A DNA stretch of 22,505 nt from a virus. Taxonomy: Duplodnaviria > Heunggongvirae > Uroviricota > Caudoviricetes. The position numbers were made by a program, and so were the translations under genes. Shown here piece after piece: positions 1 to 12,899 of the stretch (the first letter of the stretch is position 1; every line of letters begins with the position of its first letter). The notes below the pieces were generated by a model. It saw nothing but the letters and a program-made list of their open reading frames with translations, ran no database searches and was not told where the DNA came from. The stretch lies in the IMG/VR virus record IMGVR_UViG_2585427793_000014, positions 1-22,505 of that record. One strand, written 5' to 3'.

Positions 1-618
1 CCAGACCGAGCCTTCAATACGTTTGTCGCCAAGGAACGTCGGAGAGCCTTCCTGTTCAATATCCTCATCAAAGGCAGCAAGTTCATCATAACCCGCCACA
101 TCCACCGACTTTTCACGGTAGTTTTTTGCCGCTTTACCGCCCAGGCACCAGAAGCCACGACCATTGGAAAAACGCTTCATAGTGAGCGTGTTATCCCGGT
201 GCTTTTTGCCATACCACGGAGCCAGCGCCAGCAGCGACGGAATATCGCGGATGGTCGGCTCAACGTGGGTTTTCATAAAGTTCTCGGCATCACCATCCGT
301 CGGCAACCAGATAAGGGTGTTGCGCTGCTTATGCTCTATAAAGTAGGCATAAACACCCAGCAGCATTTTGGAATAACCGACACGGGCAGACTTCACCACA
401 TTCACCTCACGGATGTAGTCGCTGCCCATCGCATTCATGATGGCCCGCTGAAAGGGCAGTGTTTCCCAGCGCCCTTCCTGGTATGCGGATTCTTTCGGGA
501 GATAGTAATTAGCATCCGCCCATTCAACGGCGGTCTGTGGCTCCGGCCTGAACAGTGAGCGAAGCCCGGCGCGGACAAAATGCCGCAGCCTGTTAACCTG
601 ACTGTTCGATATATTCAC
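1..618 (-). CDS. A: Terminase large subunit gpA, N-terminal 206 codons; gene runs past the window start
   Basis: Minus-strand frame reads GTG-NISNSQVNRLRHFVRAGLRSLFRPEPQTAVEWADANYYLPKE...RIEGSVW, matching my recollection of lambda gpA almost residue for residue. Start codon GTG at 616-618 lies 26 nt inside the Nu1 3' end, as in lambda. Confidence 0.93.
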   Translation of the reverse strand, partial: MNISNSQVNRLRHFVRAGLRSLFRPEPQTAVEWADANYYLPKESAYQEGRWETLPFQRAIMNAMGSDYIREVNVVKSARVGYSKMLLGVYAYFIEHKQRNTLIWLPTDGDAENFMKTHVEPTIRDIPSLLALAPWYGKKHRDNTLTMKRFSNGRGFWCLGGKAAKNYREKSVDVAGYDELAAFDEDIEQEGSPTFLGDKRIEGSVW

Positions 619-1138
619 TCAGCAACCCCGGTATCAGTTCATCCAGCGCGGCTGCTTTGTTCATGGCTTTGATGATATCCCGTTTCAGGAAATCAACATG
701 TCGGTTTTCCAGTTCCGGAAAACGCCGCTGCACCGACAGGGGGATCCCGTCGAGAATACTGGCAATTTCACCTGCGATCCGCGACAGCACGAAAGTACAG
801 AATGCGGTTTCCACCACTTCAGCGGAGTCTCTGGCATTCTTCAGTTCCTGTGCGTCGGCCTGCGCACGCGTAAGTCGATGGCGTTCGTACTCAATAGTCC
901 CTGGCTGGAGATCTGTCTCGCTGGCCTGCCGCAGTTCTGCAACTTCCCGGCGCAGCTTTTCGTTCTCAATTTCAGCATCCCTTTCGGCATACCATTTTAT
1001 GACGGCGGCAGAGTCATAAAGCACCTCATTACCCTTGCCACCGCCTCGCAGAACGGGCATTCCCTGTTCCTGCCAGTTCTGAATGGTACGGATACTCGCA
1101 CCGAAAATGTCAGCCAGCTGCTTTTTGTTGACTTCCAT
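593..1138 (-). CDS. nu1: Terminase small subunit Nu1
   Basis: 181-aa ORF MEVNKKQLADIFGASIRTIQNWQEQGMPVLRGGGKGNEVLYD..., near-identical to lambda Nu1 as I recall it. ATG at 1136-1138; the 3' end overlaps the A start. Confidence 0.95.
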   Translation of the reverse strand: MEVNKKQLADIFGASIRTIQNWQEQGMPVLRGGGKGNEVLYDSAAVIKWYAERDAEIENEKLRREVAELRQASETDLQPGTIEYERHRLTRAQADAQELKNARDSAEVVETAFCTFVLSRIAGEIASILDGIPLSVQRRFPELENRHVDFLKRDIIKAMNKAAALDELIPGLLSEYIEQSG

Positions 1139-1526: not shown

Positions 1527-1760
1527 ATGTCAACGAAGAACAGAACTCGCAGAACAACAACCCGCAACATCCGCTTTCCTAACCAAATGATTGAACAAAT
1601 TAACATCGCTCTTGTTCAAAAAGGGTCCGGGAATTTCTCAGCCTGGGTCATTGAAGCCTGCCGCCGGAGACTGTGCTCAGAAAAAAGAGTTTCGCCTGAA
1701 GCAAACAAAGAAAAGAGTGACATTACTGAATTGCTCAGAAAACAGGTTAGACCAGATTGA
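1527..1760 (+). CDS. Small hypothetical protein, possibly YlcI/YnfO-family (DUF3950-like)
   Basis: 77-aa ORF MSTKNRTRRTTTRNIRFPNQMIEQINIALVQKGSGNFSAWVIEACRRRL..., which I recall as typical of small prophage proteins near cos in DLP12/Qin-like prophages. Weak ribosome-binding site; orientation is opposite to the late genes. Confidence 0.45.
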   Translation: MSTKNRTRRTTTRNIRFPNQMIEQINIALVQKGSGNFSAWVIEACRRRLCSEKRVSPEANKEKSDITELLRKQVRPD

Positions 1761-1802: not shown

Positions 1803-2228
1803 ATGGAAGGTACTACAATGGCTCAGGTTGCCATTTTTAAACAAATATTCGATAAAGTGCGAAATAATTTAAACTATCACTGGTTTTATTCTGAACTAAA
1901 ACGTCACAATGTCTCACATTACATTTACTATTTAGCCACAGAGAATATTCATCTTGTTCTTGAAAACGATAATACGGTTTTAATAAAAGGACAGGGTAAG
2001 GTTGTAAATGTAAGATTTTCAAAAAATAAATGCCTTATAGAAGCCACCTTAAAAGGATTCAAATCAGGAGAGTTATCATTTTACGAATACAGGAAAAATC
2101 TTGCTACAGCAGGGGTTTTCAGATGGATTACAAATATCCACGAAAACAAAAGGTATTACTATACCTTTGATAATTCATTACTCTTTACTGAGAACATTCA
2201 GAACACTACACAAATATTTCCGCACTAA
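1803..2228 (+). CDS. Hypothetical AT-rich moron protein (possibly YbcV/DUF1398-like); likely true start at ATG 1818
   Basis: 141-aa ORF with low GC. GGAAGG ribosome-binding site 7 nt before ATG 1818 gives a 136-aa product ([16 protein letters not shown]...). Sits between cos and the lysis cassette, as ybcV does in DLP12 (synteny recalled, not verified). Confidence 0.45.
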
Positions 2229-2514
2229 ATCATAACGTCCGGTTTCTTCCGTGCCAGAACCGGACTCGCTGGCATGATGAAATATGTGTACCCGGTAACC
2301 CCGGTGTGCATCGTTTTTGATTATTCCCGCACACTCGCGCAGAAGGAGTTCCCCGTCGGGCTACGGTCTCTGTTAATACGGGAATACGGCGGCGATACAG
2401 CGCATGATGTGTCAGGCTTGAATACCTTTATCCTTTAAAAGGGATATCAGTTAAGTTATCCCGTGTAGGGTATAAGCCATTATCAAGCCCACCCGTAGAT
2501 AGGCTTTGTAATGG

Positions 2515-2772
2515 CTACTTCGCTTTTGCTTCCGCTCGCTTACGCCGGCGCTCTTCTTTCCTCTCGGCTTTTGCCATGTCCATGAATGCCTGCATGATCG
2601 AGTTCCGCATCATGTAGCTAACAAAGTGATGATTGACACAGCCGTTGAGGCGCAGCTGCTCGCCAAACTCATCCACCGAGGCCAATGCTTCCATCATGCC
2701 CTTCTCGCCTTTCATGAACTCTGAGAAGTCGCGCCCCGCTCTGGAGGCGCATTCAATAACACGATCACTCAT
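2515..2772 (-). CDS. Hypothetical 85-aa protein with basic C-terminus (KAERKEERRRKRAEAKAK)
   Basis: ATG at 2770-2772 overlaps the stop of the upstream KilA-N gene (ATGA), suggesting translational coupling. No family recognised. Confidence 0.4.
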   Translation of the reverse strand: MSDRVIECASRAGRDFSEFMKGEKGMMEALASVDEFGEQLRLNGCVNHHFVSYMMRNSIMQAFMDMAKAERKEERRRKRAEAKAK

Positions 2773-3266
2773 CCCAGAAGCCCGGGGATCGTAATCTGCA
2801 GCTGGTTAGCCAGGGAGTTAATCTCAGCGACCAACACTGGCTTCGTATAGCGCCATGCTGCCAGCCCTTGTCCGCAGAAGCTCGCCATGTCTTTCTTCTG
2901 GTCAAACTCATGACATTTCATGTTGAGCTGCGCACTTAAGCTGTTGCGATGCTGAAGTTCTCCGGTGAAGTAGTCATCGAGGACTTTATAGGCCGCGTAC
3001 TTGAACCCGGGGTTTAACCAAGCCGCATAATCGTAAGCAACAAACTTCCCGCCATATGTTCCACCGTGTACACCGCGCTCAGTAAAAACCACAGATTCGT
3101 GGTTTTTCTCCAGCTCGGCTAAGAACTCTTTGGTCTGCTTGTTTCGCAGGTAGTGGTACGGAGATTCAGATTCACTTTTACCACTGGCTTTCCACATATC
3201 AGTGAGGCAGATCATGCCATCTTCACCGATACGAATTGGTTGATTGAAGAGGGTTAATGATTTCAT
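2769..3266 (-). CDS. KilA-N domain protein (165 aa)
   Basis: MKSLTLFNQPIRIGEDGMICLTDMWKASGK...GGTYGGKFVAYDYAAWLNPGFKYAAYKVL fits the KilA-N pattern (conserved GTY..., aromatic/AW block). Same strand as the late genes, between Rz and cos. Confidence 0.6.
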   Translation of the reverse strand: MKSLTLFNQPIRIGEDGMICLTDMWKASGKSESESPYHYLRNKQTKEFLAELEKNHESVVFTERGVHGGTYGGKFVAYDYAAWLNPGFKYAAYKVLDDYFTGELQHRNSLSAQLNMKCHEFDQKKDMASFCGQGLAAWRYTKPVLVAEINSLANQLQITIPGLLG

Positions 3267-3379
3267 AGCGTGTACCTACTCTTTGAAATGAACCTTTGCC
3301 GCACAGGAAACCAGCCCACCGAGGCTCGCCAGCACTAACTGGTATCCTCAAAGGCCCATTCCAAAGGGGCAGGTTCGGT

Positions 3380-3405
3380 GTAAAAAACATGCGTTGCGGT
3401 ACGCA
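3380..3405 (-). terminator. Candidate intrinsic terminator (minus strand) downstream of Rz
   Basis: On the minus strand: TGCGT-ACCGCA-ACGCA hairpin followed by TGTTTTTTA. Confidence 0.4.
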
Positions 3406-3410
3406 TTTAT

Positions 3411-3437
3411 TGCAAAAAGCCCCGCATCGCGAGGCTC
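3411..3437 (-). terminator. Candidate intrinsic terminator (minus strand) immediately downstream of Rz
   Basis: On the minus strand: an imperfect GC-rich hairpin (AGCCTCGCGATGCGGGGCT) followed by TTTTTGC. Confidence 0.35.
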
Positions 3438-3467
3438 ATTAAATGGACTTTGTGATTTGCAAAAAAA

Positions 3468-3905
3468 TTATTTCAGGCATTGCGTCCTGATGTATTCCTG
3501 CAGGTAGTTAACCTGCGCGGTTATCTTGTCGATTCCACTTCGGAGACGGTAATAATTGAGTTCAGCATCTGCTGTAAGTCCTGGGCTTTCTCCATTGCCC
3601 ATGCCGCTGGCTCCGGTCGTTGACTTTGCACAGGTGGCGGCGACTTGCAGGCGCTTACGCCCAGCAGAAACATCAGCACGGAGACTTTCGATAGTCGCGT
3701 TAGCATCAGCAAGCTCCTTTGTATATCTGGCATCGAGTTCTGCTACGTCACGTTGACGCTTCTGCATGTCAGCGATGATGTACGTGGCTTTATCGCGCTG
3801 TTCTTTATAGGTAATGGCGTTATCACGGTAATGATTAACAGCCCATGACAGACAGACGATGATGCAGATAACCAGAGCGGAGATAATCGCGGTTAACCTG
3901 CTCAT
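3468..3905 (-). CDS. Rz: Spanin inner-membrane subunit Rz (i-spanin)
   Basis: [34 protein letters not shown]... closely resembles lambda Rz (N-terminal transmembrane segment, coiled-coil body). ATG at 3903-3905 overlaps the R stop (ATGA). The six-frame track extends the ORF to a GTG at 3917. Confidence 0.85.
3521..3706 (-). CDS. Rz1: Spanin outer-membrane lipoprotein Rz1 (o-spanin), embedded in Rz in the +1 frame
   Basis: ORF wholly inside Rz. Signal peptide [20 protein letters not shown] with a lipobox cysteine, then a proline-rich mature part ([13 protein letters not shown]...), the classic Rz1 architecture. Start chosen at the internal Met before the signal peptide. Confidence 0.7.
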
Positions 3906-4399
3906 TGCTGCCCCCACAAACAGACTTCACGCTCAATCTCACGGCGAGTCATCAGCCCTTTCCATTGCTTACCGCCAGCGTATGTCCAGCGACGTAGCTG
4001 GTCACATGCGCCTTTGATATCGCCCTGGTTGATTTTGCGAAGAAGCGTCGATGTTCTGAAATTGCCAGCACCCACGTTGTAGACGAACGAGTAAAGAGCG
4101 CCGCGCGTTGTTTCCGGTATATCGACTTTGATGTACGGGTTAATTTGTCTGGCGACAGTGGTAAGGTCTTTATTCAGGAGGGCTTTGCACTCTGCTTCGG
4201 TATACGTTTTACCGGGAATGATGTCTTTTCCTGTATGCCCGTAACATACAGTCCATACACCAACTATGTCTTTGTAAGGATTATGTCTCACACCTTCCAG
4301 ACCATCGTTACCACTTGGGCCAGTGATTAACACAGATGCTATAGCAATAGCCCCGCCACCAATAGCAGCAGCAACAGCTTTTCGTAATGATGGAGGCAT
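3902..4399 (-). CDS. R: Endolysin R, phage-21-type SAR (signal-anchor-release) lysozyme
   Basis: [36 protein letters not shown]... with a Gly/Ala-rich N-terminal SAR segment and lysozyme body; matches my recollection of phage 21 R and DLP12 RrrD. Confidence 0.93.
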
Positions 4400-4614
4400 T
4401 ATCCACCTCTCGCAGCCTTGCGCTTATCTTCTTTAATCTTGAAATAAAGGTTTGTCAGGTACGTCAGCAGGCCAAATACCAGGCTACCCAGCACTCCAAT
4501 TGCCGCCCACTGTGAGGGCGTGACTTTATCTAGCAGCTGTAAAAACCAGTATCCGGCACTACCTGCTGAGGTGCCATAGGCGACACCCGTTGTTAACTTA
4601 TCCATGGATTTCAT
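4399..4614 (-). CDS. S: Pinholin S (phage 21 S21-type) with dual-start motif: antiholin from Met1 (4614), holin from Met4 (4605)
   Basis: [28 protein letters not shown]...[32 protein letters not shown]: two transmembrane segments, Lys between Met1 and Met4, basic C-terminus. GAGGTGG ribosome-binding site upstream. Confidence 0.93.
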
Positions 4615-4760: not shown

Positions 4761-5186
4761 AGCTGTGTGACGAAGTGACCACTCTTAATAGCATAACCAA
4801 TTTTTTACGTACGTAAACCACTAAATGATATTTGCGAGAATGCTACCGAGTATTGAAAACACCACTACAAATACATAAGCAAATCTCAACAAATAACCAA
4901 CAAATAATTTCCAGTGTTATTTTTAGCCGGTTTAAATTGAACCTTCAAATTATAGAGCACTTATAAATAACAGACATTAATATAAATTGGCTAATAGATT
5001 TATTTTTATTCAGCCAAGAGCCATGAATAGGATTCGATAGAAAAAAGTTCAGATAAAAATAGAGATCTACTTCACAAATCAAACGAGAAACCAAAACTTA
5101 CATCTTGAAATAATCACATTGATTAGATGAATATTTATCGCGCAGTGACATCATTTTTTAATAATAGTTCAAAAAAAGGGCTCACG

Positions 5187-6269
5187 ATGAAAAAATTAAC
5201 AGTGGCAATTTCTGCTGTAGCTGCATCAGTACTGATGGCGATGTCTGCTCAGGCAGCTGAAATTTATAATAAAGACAGTAACAAGCTGGATCTGTACGGG
5301 AAAGTTAATGCTAAGCACTACTTCTCCTCTAATGATGCAGATGATGGTGATACTACTTATGCCCGTCTTGGCTTCAAAGGTGAAACCCAAATCAACGATC
5401 AACTGACTGGTTTCGGTCAGTGGGAATATGAATTCAAAGGCAACCGCGCTGAATCTCAAGGTTCCTCCAAAGATAAAACCCGTCTTGCCTTCGCTGGCCT
5501 GAAATTCGGTGACTACGGCTCCATCGATTACGGCCGTAACTACGGTGTAGCATACGACATCGGTGCGTGGACTGACGTCCTGCCAGAATTCGGTGGTGAC
5601 ACTTGGACTCAAACCGACGTGTTCATGACTCAACGTGCAACTGGTGTTGCAACTTATCGTAACAACGACTTCTTTGGTCTGGTCGATGGCCTGAACTTTG
5701 CTGCTCAGTATCAGGGTAAAAATGACCGCACTGACGTAACTGAAGCCAATGGTGATGGTTTCGGTTTCTCCACTACTTATGAGTATGAAGGATTCGGCGT
5801 GGGTGCAACCTATGCTAAATCAGATCGCACTGACGGTCAGGTCGCCTATGGTAAGAGCAAATTCAATGCCTCCGGCAAAAATGCGGAAGTATGGGCTGCA
5901 GGCCTGAAATATGATGCGAACAATATCTATCTGGCTACCACATATTCTGAAACTCAGAATATGACCGTTTTTGGTAATAACCATATTGCAAACAAAGCAC
6001 AAAACTTTGAAGCAGTAGCACAATATCAGTTTGACTTCGGTCTGCGCCCATCTGTTGCTTACCTTCAGTCAAAAGGTAAAGACCTTGGTGTTCATGGTGA
6101 CCGAGACTTAGTCAAGTATGTCGATGTCGGTGCTACTTACTACTTTAATAAAAACATGTCCACTTTTGTTGATTACAAAATCAACTTAATTGACGATAGT
6201 AAGTTTACCAAAACAGCTGGTATTGATACCGACGACATCGCCGCTGTAGGTCTGGTTTATCAGTTCTAA
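5187..6269 (+). CDS. nmpC: Outer-membrane general porin, OmpC/OmpF/NmpC family (prophage moron)
   Basis: Signal peptide [30 protein letters not shown]..., beta-barrel porin pattern, terminal ...VGLVYQF. Position between Q and S matches nmpC of DLP12 and lc of PA-2 (recalled). ATG 5187 is preferred over the upstream in-frame ATG 5127. Confidence 0.93.
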
Positions 6270-11739: not shown

Positions 11740-12899
11740 TTGCGCCCCCTTACCTCTGAAGAGTTCAGCGACGAATGAATAAGACGGGCAAGAAATGCCG
11801 CATCGTTAATTCGGTCATACAGACTTACAGCCAGAGGTGATTCAGCTTTTTCCAGCATGGGATAAAGCTGCTGCAACCAGACCTGATGAATTGATGAAAT
11901 GTAGGAATAGAGAACACTGGCGTTATGTGCAACGTCGCTCGGTACAGCGGGCTTTGAAAGCTGTTTCTCCATCTGGTTAAAGGCATTGATGTATGCCTCT
12001 TTGAACTGGGCAGCACGTTTACCCGTGAAACCCATAGCAAGAAACGCAAAGCCATCGCGGGTTATTTGATAGCAAGGTAGTTTGCGAGTACCGCCGTTGG
12101 GCTGGCGTACCAAAATTGATGTCTCCGCAAAATTGCGGGCACAAAACTCTGGAGAACAATCCAAAATGCGAATCTTTTTCAGAACATCGTCATGACGTTT
12201 AGAGAAGAAGTCAGCAACAGCCAAAGAAGATGTAACAGCCTGACCATCAACGATGGCAATTTCAGGTTGAGAGAGGGTTGGGAGAGTAGTCATAGTGACA
12301 GCCCCGGTAGTCAGTTTTTTAGAAAACTCACCACATGGGACGCCAATCACAGAGGTGGTGAGACGTACAGGGTTGGCGTTACCGGAGACTACCGAACCCG
12401 GCCCGACCGAAGTCGGCCCTGTACGCCCCACCATAATTTGGGCGTAGCAATGCTCATGACACGAAAAAACCGCATGAGCGCGGTTATGCTCAGTAATCAA
12501 TTTCAGGACGCCAATCCCGGCACCCGCTTTATAAGGTGCCTGAACAGTGTAACGTCCCGGAATGGCAGAATCAATGTGCTGGTGGTCCTTCACACTCAAC
12601 AAAATCACGCCTGAATTTCCACAAAGGACTAAAGCACTCATGCGGGTAGTCTTTGCGAAGATAGATAACGCGCTGAGTTTCTGGCTCCCAACGAATAACA
12701 TGGACATAAAGCCCTCTTCCATCACGAAACCAGCGGTTAAGTTCCTGCACAACTCGCCCCCCACAGTCAGGTAAAGTTCTCTGTGGTTACTTACAGCCAG
12801 GTGATTTGGTAATCTGCATTCATGCCGTAACAACAGGTGTTCAGCGACACTGACCACCAGCTGTTGCGACAAACGGTTATTTGCCGTTAAACTGTTCAT
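11736..12899 (-). CDS. Rha-domain phage regulatory protein with about 200-aa N-terminal extension
   Basis: Residues about 205-320 (LSQPEIAIVDGQAVTSSLAVADFFSKRHDDVLKKIRILD...GTRKLPCYQITRDGFAFLAMGFTGKRAAQFKEAYINAFNQME) match the Rha pattern. ATG 12897-12899 overlaps the CII-like stop (ATGA). The N-terminal 200 aa have atypical composition. Confidence 0.55.
   Translation of the reverse strand: MNSLTANNRLSQQLVVSVAEHLLLRHECRLPNHLAVSNHRELYLTVGGELCRNLTAGFVMEEGFMSMLFVGSQKLSALSIFAKTTRMSALVLCGNSGVILLSVKDHQHIDSAIPGRYTVQAPYKAGAGIGVLKLITEHNRAHAVFSCHEHCYAQIMVGRTGPTSVGPGSVVSGNANPVRLTTSVIGVPCGEFSKKLTTGAVTMTTLPTLSQPEIAIVDGQAVTSSLAVADFFSKRHDDVLKKIRILDCSPEFCARNFAETSILVRQPNGGTRKLPCYQITRDGFAFLAMGFTGKRAAQFKEAYINAFNQMEKQLSKPAVPSDVAHNASVLYSYISSIHQVWLQQLYPMLEKAESPLAVSLYDRINDAAFLARLIHSSLNSSEVRGRK

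Follow-up and report, generated by a model that had tools for sequence, protein, structure and literature searches.

A KilA-N gene pair of phage late operons shares a covarying, pseudoknotted leader RNA with P22 rha

What does a KilA-N gene with a small, coupled partner do among the late genes of a temperate phage, and how does it come to be expressed there? We addressed this question for a gene pair in a 22,505-nucleotide stretch of viral DNA (IMG/VR record IMGVR_UViG_2585427793_000014, positions 1 to 22,505; hereafter the window), a lambdoid E. coli prophage whose late genes are read from the minus strand (Table 1). A preliminary description of this DNA had presented the pair as two translationally coupled late-strand genes, forming a moron that occupies the slot between Rz and cos and that may be expressed independently. 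Both open reading frames are indeed present, and the junction between them in the window sequence, CTG GGA TGA / ATG AGT, is a true ATGA overlap. The position of the cassette between Rz and cos stands, as does its accessory, non-structural character, given its place in the variable region that runs from the lysis genes to the packaging genes. DUF1398/YbcV and YlcI/YnfO genes also lie in the Rz-cos interval, and the cassette is thus not its sole occupant.

Two further observations concern these surroundings. The DUF1398/YbcV gene is intact in the window and is annotated as frameshifted in the near-identical prophage of WP8-S18-ESBL-07 (L003 7420-7829), which carries, in addition, a second, longer KilA-N gene (L003 13457-14254) between its rusA and DUF968/Q genes. 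Upstream of S, and divergent from the late genes, the window encodes an OmpC/NmpC-like porin (5127-6269, plus strand); the gene is found between Q and S in near-identical PhiR49_1, where it is annotated as OmpD.

Table 1. Positions of the cassette, its upstream signals and neighbouring genes in the window.
Feature	Position	Strand	Basis or remark
Nu1	593-1138	-	late gene, downstream of cassette
YlcI/YnfO	1527-1760	+	opposite to cassette; between cassette and Nu1
DUF1398/YbcV	1803-2228	+	opposite to cassette; between cassette and Nu1
85-aa gene	2515-2772	-	ORF call; PHROG 875; equivalent to HK620 hkbL
165-aa gene	2769-3266	-	ORF call; KilA-N + ORF11CD3; equivalent to HK620 hkbK
ATG of 165-aa gene	3264-3266	-	3' end of leader
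Structured 5' leader RNA	3264-3380	-	117 nt including ATG; fold and covariance model
Long hairpin of leader	3274-3374	-	fold
Shine-Dalgarno region GAGUAGG	3275-3281	-	paired in basal stem
Conserved 3' bulge UGUGCGG	3299-3305	-	leader
Pseudoknot strand P1b (apical loop)	3317-3322	-	UCGGUG
Pseudoknot strand P1a	3375-3380	-	CACCGA
Hairpin 2	3383-3406	-	ATGCGT-N6-ACGCAT (3389-3406), then T6; terminator scan
Hairpin 1, intrinsic terminator	3414-3437	-	stem 3417-3437, U-run 3414-3418; 30 nt past Rz stop
Rz	3468-3917	-	PF03245, 4e-35; Rz1 embedded; directly upstream of cassette
R	3902-4399	-	lambdoid late gene
S (holin)	4399-4614	-	lambdoid late gene

The product of the larger gene combines two domains. 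Pfam profile searches place KilA-N (PF04383) at residues 9-101 (57.6 bits against a cutoff of 23.8), bearing out the original assignment, and add a domain that had not been named, ORF11CD3 (PF10549), at residues 109-161 (50.5 bits). The KilA-N domain conforms to the APSES/Mbp1-type fold. Judged by this domain content, the 165-aa protein is a member of the Bro network, with a predicted DNA-binding (APSES-like) KilA-N domain and a C-terminal ORF11CD3 helical hairpin. Neither ANT nor P22_AR was found in it by a Pfam scan at E <= 0.1; profile searches returned no recognizable nuclease domain and no match to Phage_pRha (PF09669), the N-terminus being KilA-N, and a profile search with the 165-aa family found nothing among PDB sequences. 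Relatives of the protein are 165-189 aa in length and share the same IPGL motif at the end. We also considered whether the cassette might be a degenerate fragment of a larger gene, as the preliminary description had allowed, and rejected this, since (i) close relatives all end where the 165-aa protein ends and (ii) nearly all clusters have the small gene on its own, with fusions occurring as singletons. PHROG 129, which represents the large protein, is longer (273 positions).

For the 85-aa partner, the reported lack of a recognizable family holds for Pfam and NCBIfam, in which profile searches yielded no family, and fails for PHROGs, in which PHROG 875 (function unknown) matches the protein from end to end (3e-54). 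Its tail is basic as described, with 10 K/R against 5 D/E in the last 22 residues. An AF2 model (pLDDT 92.5; helices at residues 3-20, 26-42, and 48-84) predicts, with high confidence, a protein of three helices of which the last is long and basic; in this model, the tail looks nucleic-acid-binding rather than inhibitory. The PDB contained no significant structural or sequence match to the protein. The family occurs only in Enterobacterales and its members are 83-88 aa long in nearly all clusters; C8, C45, and N47 are invariant, with H48/H49 nearly so (at least 90% of sequences), and from this conservation C8, C45, H48, and H49 could form a metal site or a disulfide. Comparison of the small gene with divergent homologues gives dN/dS values of 0.07-0.29, indicative of purifying selection on a real gene and not a fragment.

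The nearest characterized relative of the cassette is rha of phage P22. The window leader matches P22 positions 39530-39646, directly upstream of rha, with 94.9% identity over 117 nt (query positions 7-123). Read from the ATG that this leader defines, P22 Rha is a 178-aa protein composed of pRha and ORF11CD3, the latter of which, together with a shared IPGL end, aligns to residues 98-163 of the window protein (BLASTP 35% identity, 1e-8). Like the cassette, rha lies on the late strand after the spanin genes (gene 15/Rz1) and before the packaging genes (gene 3). The two differ in the N-terminal domain of the encoded protein, KilA-N in the window and Phage_pRha in P22, and in the PHROG 875 gene, which is present in the cassette and absent after rha in P22. 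From the common slot, leader, and C-terminal domain, we infer that the cassette is the KilA-N counterpart of rha, in which the N-terminal domain has been swapped and a small partner added; as pRha yielded no match, the 165-aa gene is a domain-swapped variant and not a Rha orthologue. A passage in PMC4936722, citing Henthorn and Friedman 1995, presents rha of P22 and phi80 as a late-operon gene that inhibits lytic growth in IHF-deficient hosts. The regulation of P22 rha may not transfer to the cassette, in or near which no IHF consensus site was found, and with KilA-N in place of pRha the target may differ from that of Rha. The annotated start of P22 rha ('orf201'; L339, NC_002371 2146-2751) lies 69 nt inside the structured leader.

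Domain exchange of this type is characteristic of the Bro network (Bro-N, KilA-N, pRha, ANT, ORF11CD3, and P63C, with P22 Ant among its members), the proteins of which, like that of the window, join an N-terminal DNA-binding domain to a variable C-terminal domain; the genes shuffle domains and may be mobilized by HNH-AP2 modules (PMC10111431). The same swapping is seen in front of the small gene. More distant homologues of the small protein are encoded immediately after KilA-N+P63C proteins (242-251 aa) in phages of Klebsiella, Raoultella, and Trabulsiella, and immediately after a pRha+ANT protein in a P22-like immunity region of Rouxiella; across all three architectures (these two and KilA-N+ORF11CD3), the small gene is tightly coupled to the upstream gene. 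A further protein, P0133, is a domain-swapped hybrid. Unlike Bro antirepressors, the 165-aa protein is without ANT or P22_AR and is encoded in a late operon, not in an immunity region.

Independent expression of the pair was originally suggested on account of two terminator-like hairpins following Rz. Hairpin 1, with its 9-bp GC-rich stem (GAGCCUCGC/GCGGGGCUU), 3-nt loop, and U5 run (-14.6 kcal/mol, z = -3.2), is by its sequence a canonical intrinsic terminator, and a hairpin with a GC stem and T-run occupies the corresponding place ahead of the leader in nearly all contexts, its stem showing many compensatory changes. Hairpin 2 was detected by the terminator scan but is weak (-6.9 kcal/mol, z = -1.4; not significant alone), and represents the form taken in the window by a conserved GCGC-N6/7-GCGC element that, in other leader classes, is without the T-run in most variants. 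Scanning of the minus strand revealed no sigma-70-like promoter at 3267-3467, the interval from Rz to the ATG (promoters that are non-consensus or depend on an activator would escape such a scan), and no terminator-like site 3' of the cassette at 2230-2515; nor was a conserved -35/-10 seen by eye across the leader classes. Independent expression is not supported by these results, nor by (i) the nature of the hairpins, which constitute a 5' terminator and part of a conserved leader sequestering the ribosome-binding site, (ii) the arrangement of the unit elsewhere, where it is co-oriented with, and overlaps, late genes, or (iii) P22 rha, which shares both leader and slot with the cassette and which the passage of PMC4936722 mentioned above treats as belonging to the late operon. 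With a terminator ahead of it and its ribosome-binding site hidden by the leader, the cassette looks tightly gated rather than independently expressed. A separate candidate, an SOS-controlled antirepressor of the Gifsy type, was dropped, as no LexA box was seen by eye upstream of the ATG.

The leader in the window folds into one long hairpin (MFE -48.7 kcal/mol, z = -3.18). At its base, Stem I joins the Shine-Dalgarno region to a 5' strand of CCUUU type, and Stems II-IV follow; where Stem III gives way to Stem II, the 3' strand carries a conserved, asymmetric bulge, CUGUGNGA. When upstream regions from different contexts are aligned, several sequence classes emerge, among which the base pairing is kept, and folds computed for each sequence share this architecture. 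A covariance model (R1; 28 pairs), built from six well-aligned sequences of three classes, identifies the window leader at 3264-3376 on the minus strand (46.3 bits, E ~1e-10) as the single copy in the window, and also finds all other classes; beyond the classes that seeded it, its matches are confined to the sense strand. In an alignment of 47 distinct leader sequences, which was fitted to R1 and hence leans toward the structure of the model, 95.4% of cells are paired, compensatory changes occur in 23 of the 28 nested pairs, and the covariation score is 0.592, compared to 0.216 in shuffles (none of 500 reaching the observed value) and 0.04-0.11 in slid registers. The collapse in the slid controls, along with the size of the covariation effect, makes an artefact unlikely. 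Leader alignments made with MAFFT were not structure-consistent, and RNAalifold returned weak or partial structures from these.

A pseudoknot is superimposed on this hairpin. The 5' flank pairs with the apical loop to form a helix, P1, which covaries through at least 15 sequence versions. Beside that of the window (Table 1), these include (5' flank/apical loop) CGUCGA/UCGACG in L320, CGAGAG/CUCUCG in HK620, CCCGAG/CUCGGG in class C, CACAGAA/UUCUGUG in class D, CUCAGAA/UUCUGAG in L260, CCAAGAGC/GCUCUUGG in classes E and H, GAGAGC/GCUCUC in class F, and UCCCAGAG/CUCUGGGA in class G. With search windows fixed relative to the ATG, a Watson-Crick P1 helix of 6 bp or more is present in 41 of the 45 distinct leaders, as opposed to 11.6% of non-cognate combinations and 12.4% of shuffles. 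U-G pairs, frequent in the alignment of 47 sequences, are indicative of a sense-strand RNA. The leader is a sense-strand RNA structure, the basal stem of which pairs the Shine-Dalgarno region, with a pseudoknot linking apical loop and 5' flank. Rfam gave no match at E <= 1 for positions 2200-3700 of the window on either strand. At Rfam gathering thresholds, only two matches were obtained, both elsewhere in the window, namely C4 antisense RNA (12351-12438, minus strand, 82.3 bits) and the adjoining isrK (12463-12539, minus strand, 59.3 bits), which together make up a P1/P4-type immunity-RNA pair of the prophage.

Hairpins that occlude a ribosome-binding site are known to precede accessory and homing-endonuclease genes of phages, among them intron-borne and free-standing genes of T4, and the leader of lambda N is processed by RNase III. 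Like the T4-type leaders, that of the window sets a stable hairpin on the Shine-Dalgarno region of a non-essential gene in a long operon. It differs from them in being much larger (a hairpin of ~100 nt with four stems and a conserved bulge), in its covarying pseudoknot, and in the upstream terminator that travels along with it; neither an internal late promoter nor a processing site could be found for it.

The explanation that we favour, and to which we would give an even chance, is that of a Rha-type accessory DNA-binding cassette of the phage late operon, expressed only late and gated in translation. Late-only transcription is suggested by the failure to find a consensus promoter. The cassette would have no promoter of its own, and would be transcribed solely by the Q-modified, terminator-resistant polymerase arriving from pR', with the upstream terminator keeping unmodified polymerase out of it in the lysogen. 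Translation would be held low or conditional by the leader, in a manner resembling the RBS-occluding hairpins of other accessory and selfish phage genes. Via the ATGA overlap, the 165-aa and 85-aa proteins would be made in fixed proportion and would probably act together, the large protein serving as a non-essential, oligomeric DNA-binding regulator (Rha- or antirepressor-like) during lytic growth, as opposed to a component of the virion or of the lysis machinery.

The cassette is a common one in temperate phages of enterobacteria. The 1.1-kb region matches 206 phage records, including HK620, Stx phages 1717 and 2851, PhiR49_1 (99.6%), and numerous Salmonella phages of the P22-like kind; of 5426 complete E. 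coli genomes, 2891 match it at least in part. Both genes are found in HK620 (as hkbK/hkbL) and in 1717, 2851, PhiR49_1, and ECP1 (as 'KilA-N domain-containing protein + hypothetical protein') with a nucleotide identity of 95-99.6% and with the overlap and post-Rz position of the window, although the leader of HK620 is of class B, as opposed to class A in the window; these records assign no function to the pair, and nothing relevant was found in the literature on hkbK/hkbL and PhiR49. In 80 viral loci, which were fetched via the small protein of the window, that protein is identical in all 80. Immediately upstream of it, and overlapping it in the same way, is the large gene, which is complete in 79 loci and has 147 of 165 residues in the other. 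The contig L084 (JARKOR010000234.1), binned as 'Candidatus Nanosynbacter', carries this E. coli phage region at 96-97% nucleotide identity, probably as a binning or contamination artefact.

In HK620, PhiR49_1, and the Stx phages, the cassette follows Rz. Other phages have it between the tail chaperone and tape measure genes, between the tape measure and Dit genes (with ATGA-type overlaps at both ends), or before a Nu1-like terminase gene, and the small gene of L175 runs into the tail gene that follows it; in every late-operon position, it is co-oriented with the late genes. It is thus inserted between genes that are adjacent in related phages, at various late-operon sites, and is mobile. Homology between phages breaks sharply at ~3339-3404 upstream and at ~2237-2478 downstream, meaning that the upstream non-coding region travels with the genes; terminator, leader, and gene move as one into tail operons.

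The same leader also directly precedes genes of another kind, those of HNH_3 endonucleases (L070 2021-2638, also with AP2; L282 126-739; L087 3572-4229), and further KilA-N genes, several without the small partner. A single viral contig (L161 1940-4519) contains three tandem leader-gene units, consisting of a leader with a KilA-N+P63C gene (251 aa), a leader with a KilA-N+ORF11CD3 gene and small gene, and a leader with a KilA-N gene (176 aa). Leader sharing with HNH_3(+AP2) genes and the three-unit tandem fit the published remarks on Bro-network shuffling and HNH-AP2 mobilization (PMC10111431). Leaders of classes B and C are without an in-frame stop, and ORF callers consequently extend the KilA-N gene to 213-223 aa, where the leader-defined ATG gives 165 aa; L299, L313, L323, and L328 are loci with starts placed inside the leader. 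We tentatively propose, at somewhat less than an even chance, that the leader at 3264-3380 and its upstream terminator represent an undescribed cis-regulatory RNA family, possibly signal-responsive, that acts as a portable 'expression gate' in front of genes of an accessory or selfish nature (those of Rha, KilA-N, and HNH-AP2 endonucleases) in the late operons of enterobacterial temperate phages. The signal for such a gate may be a protein, RNase III processing, or a small molecule; alternatively, the hairpin may be passive.

These same data could be taken to mean that the terminator-leader-gene unit is selfish and passes from phage to phage during co-infection, much as free-standing homing-endonuclease genes do, with the KilA-N protein serving its own mobility or retention and not phage regulation. 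The leaders in front of HNH_3(+AP2) genes, the tandem units of L161, the many different insertion sites in late operons, and domain-swapped hybrids such as P0133 all speak for this. However, the 165-aa protein has no recognizable nuclease domain, common leaders could simply provide homology for ordinary recombination, and the purifying selection seen in the small gene suggests that more than mobility is at stake. We consider this explanation unlikely, though it is the one that best survives beside a late-expressed, gated regulator.

A lysogenic-conversion or defence moron, in which the pair would be expressed from the prophage and would exclude or abort superinfecting phages, appears distinctly unlikely. 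The slot is that of bor in lambda. KilA-N is also the N-terminal domain of BstA (PMC8585504), an abortive-infection protein of prophages, as it is of the 165-aa protein; the C-terminal parts of the two differ. PADLOC, for its part, matches residues 60-90 of the 165-aa protein to a different candidate system, PDC-S22; this match is weak (32 bits), covers part of KilA-N only and not the full architecture that a BstA-type assignment calls for, and has no convincing equivalent for the small protein. BstA is ~307 aa in length, about twice that of the 165-aa protein, and sits next to the repressor, unlike the cassette. Expression from a prophage is also difficult to reconcile with a unit that has no promoter-like site, has a terminator on its 5' side and none on its 3' side, has its ribosome-binding site sequestered, and, in other phages, lies inside tail operons, overlapping structural genes.

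We regard as very unlikely a toxin-antidote pair, in which a toxic ('kil') KilA-N protein would be neutralized or dosed by the coupled small protein. Expression of P1 KilA does kill the host, translational coupling is kept across three upstream architectures, and two layers of gating (terminator and leader) would suit a harmful product; the relative Rha, moreover, inhibits phage growth in IHF-deficient hosts according to the passage in PMC4936722. Yet P22 rha and several KilA-N genes lie behind the same leader without a small partner, the small gene is downstream, where antitoxins are usually upstream, and its basic helical tail is predicted to be suited to binding nucleic acid more than to inhibition. 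Least probable of all is an RNA-binding autoregulator, in which the C-terminal helix of the 85-aa protein (ERKEERRRKRAEAKAK), presumably reminiscent of the arginine-rich motif of N proteins and carrying the basic tail, would bind the conserved asymmetric bulge CUGUGNGA between covarying stems, or the loop, and feed back on translation. Against this, P22 rha and HNH genes have the leader but not the small gene, the Rouxiella pRha-ANT and small-gene unit has no leader recognizable upstream by eye or with the covariance model, and one identical small protein is found behind leaders of classes A, B, and C.

The gene pair as such is already in databases, as hkbK/hkbL and as PHROGs 129/875, and its distribution is ordinary. 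What is new is (i) the placement of the cassette as a domain-swapped variant of the rha cassette, (ii) the linkage of the 85-aa partner to several Bro architectures, and (iii) a strongly covarying, pseudoknotted leader, absent from Rfam, that is common to rha and HNH genes. With this leader, several database start codons are seen to be over-extended into it, e.g., P22 rha 'orf201' and the ORF calls of 213-223 aa.

Ultimately, a cassette found at least in part in about half of complete E. coli genomes, and present in Stx-converting phages, is tied through its status as the counterpart of rha to an old, unexplained phenotype, namely growth inhibition by Rha in IHF mutants. The leader and terminator could explain how late operons tolerate potentially harmful accessory genes, and could likewise explain how accessory genes are exchanged between phages.
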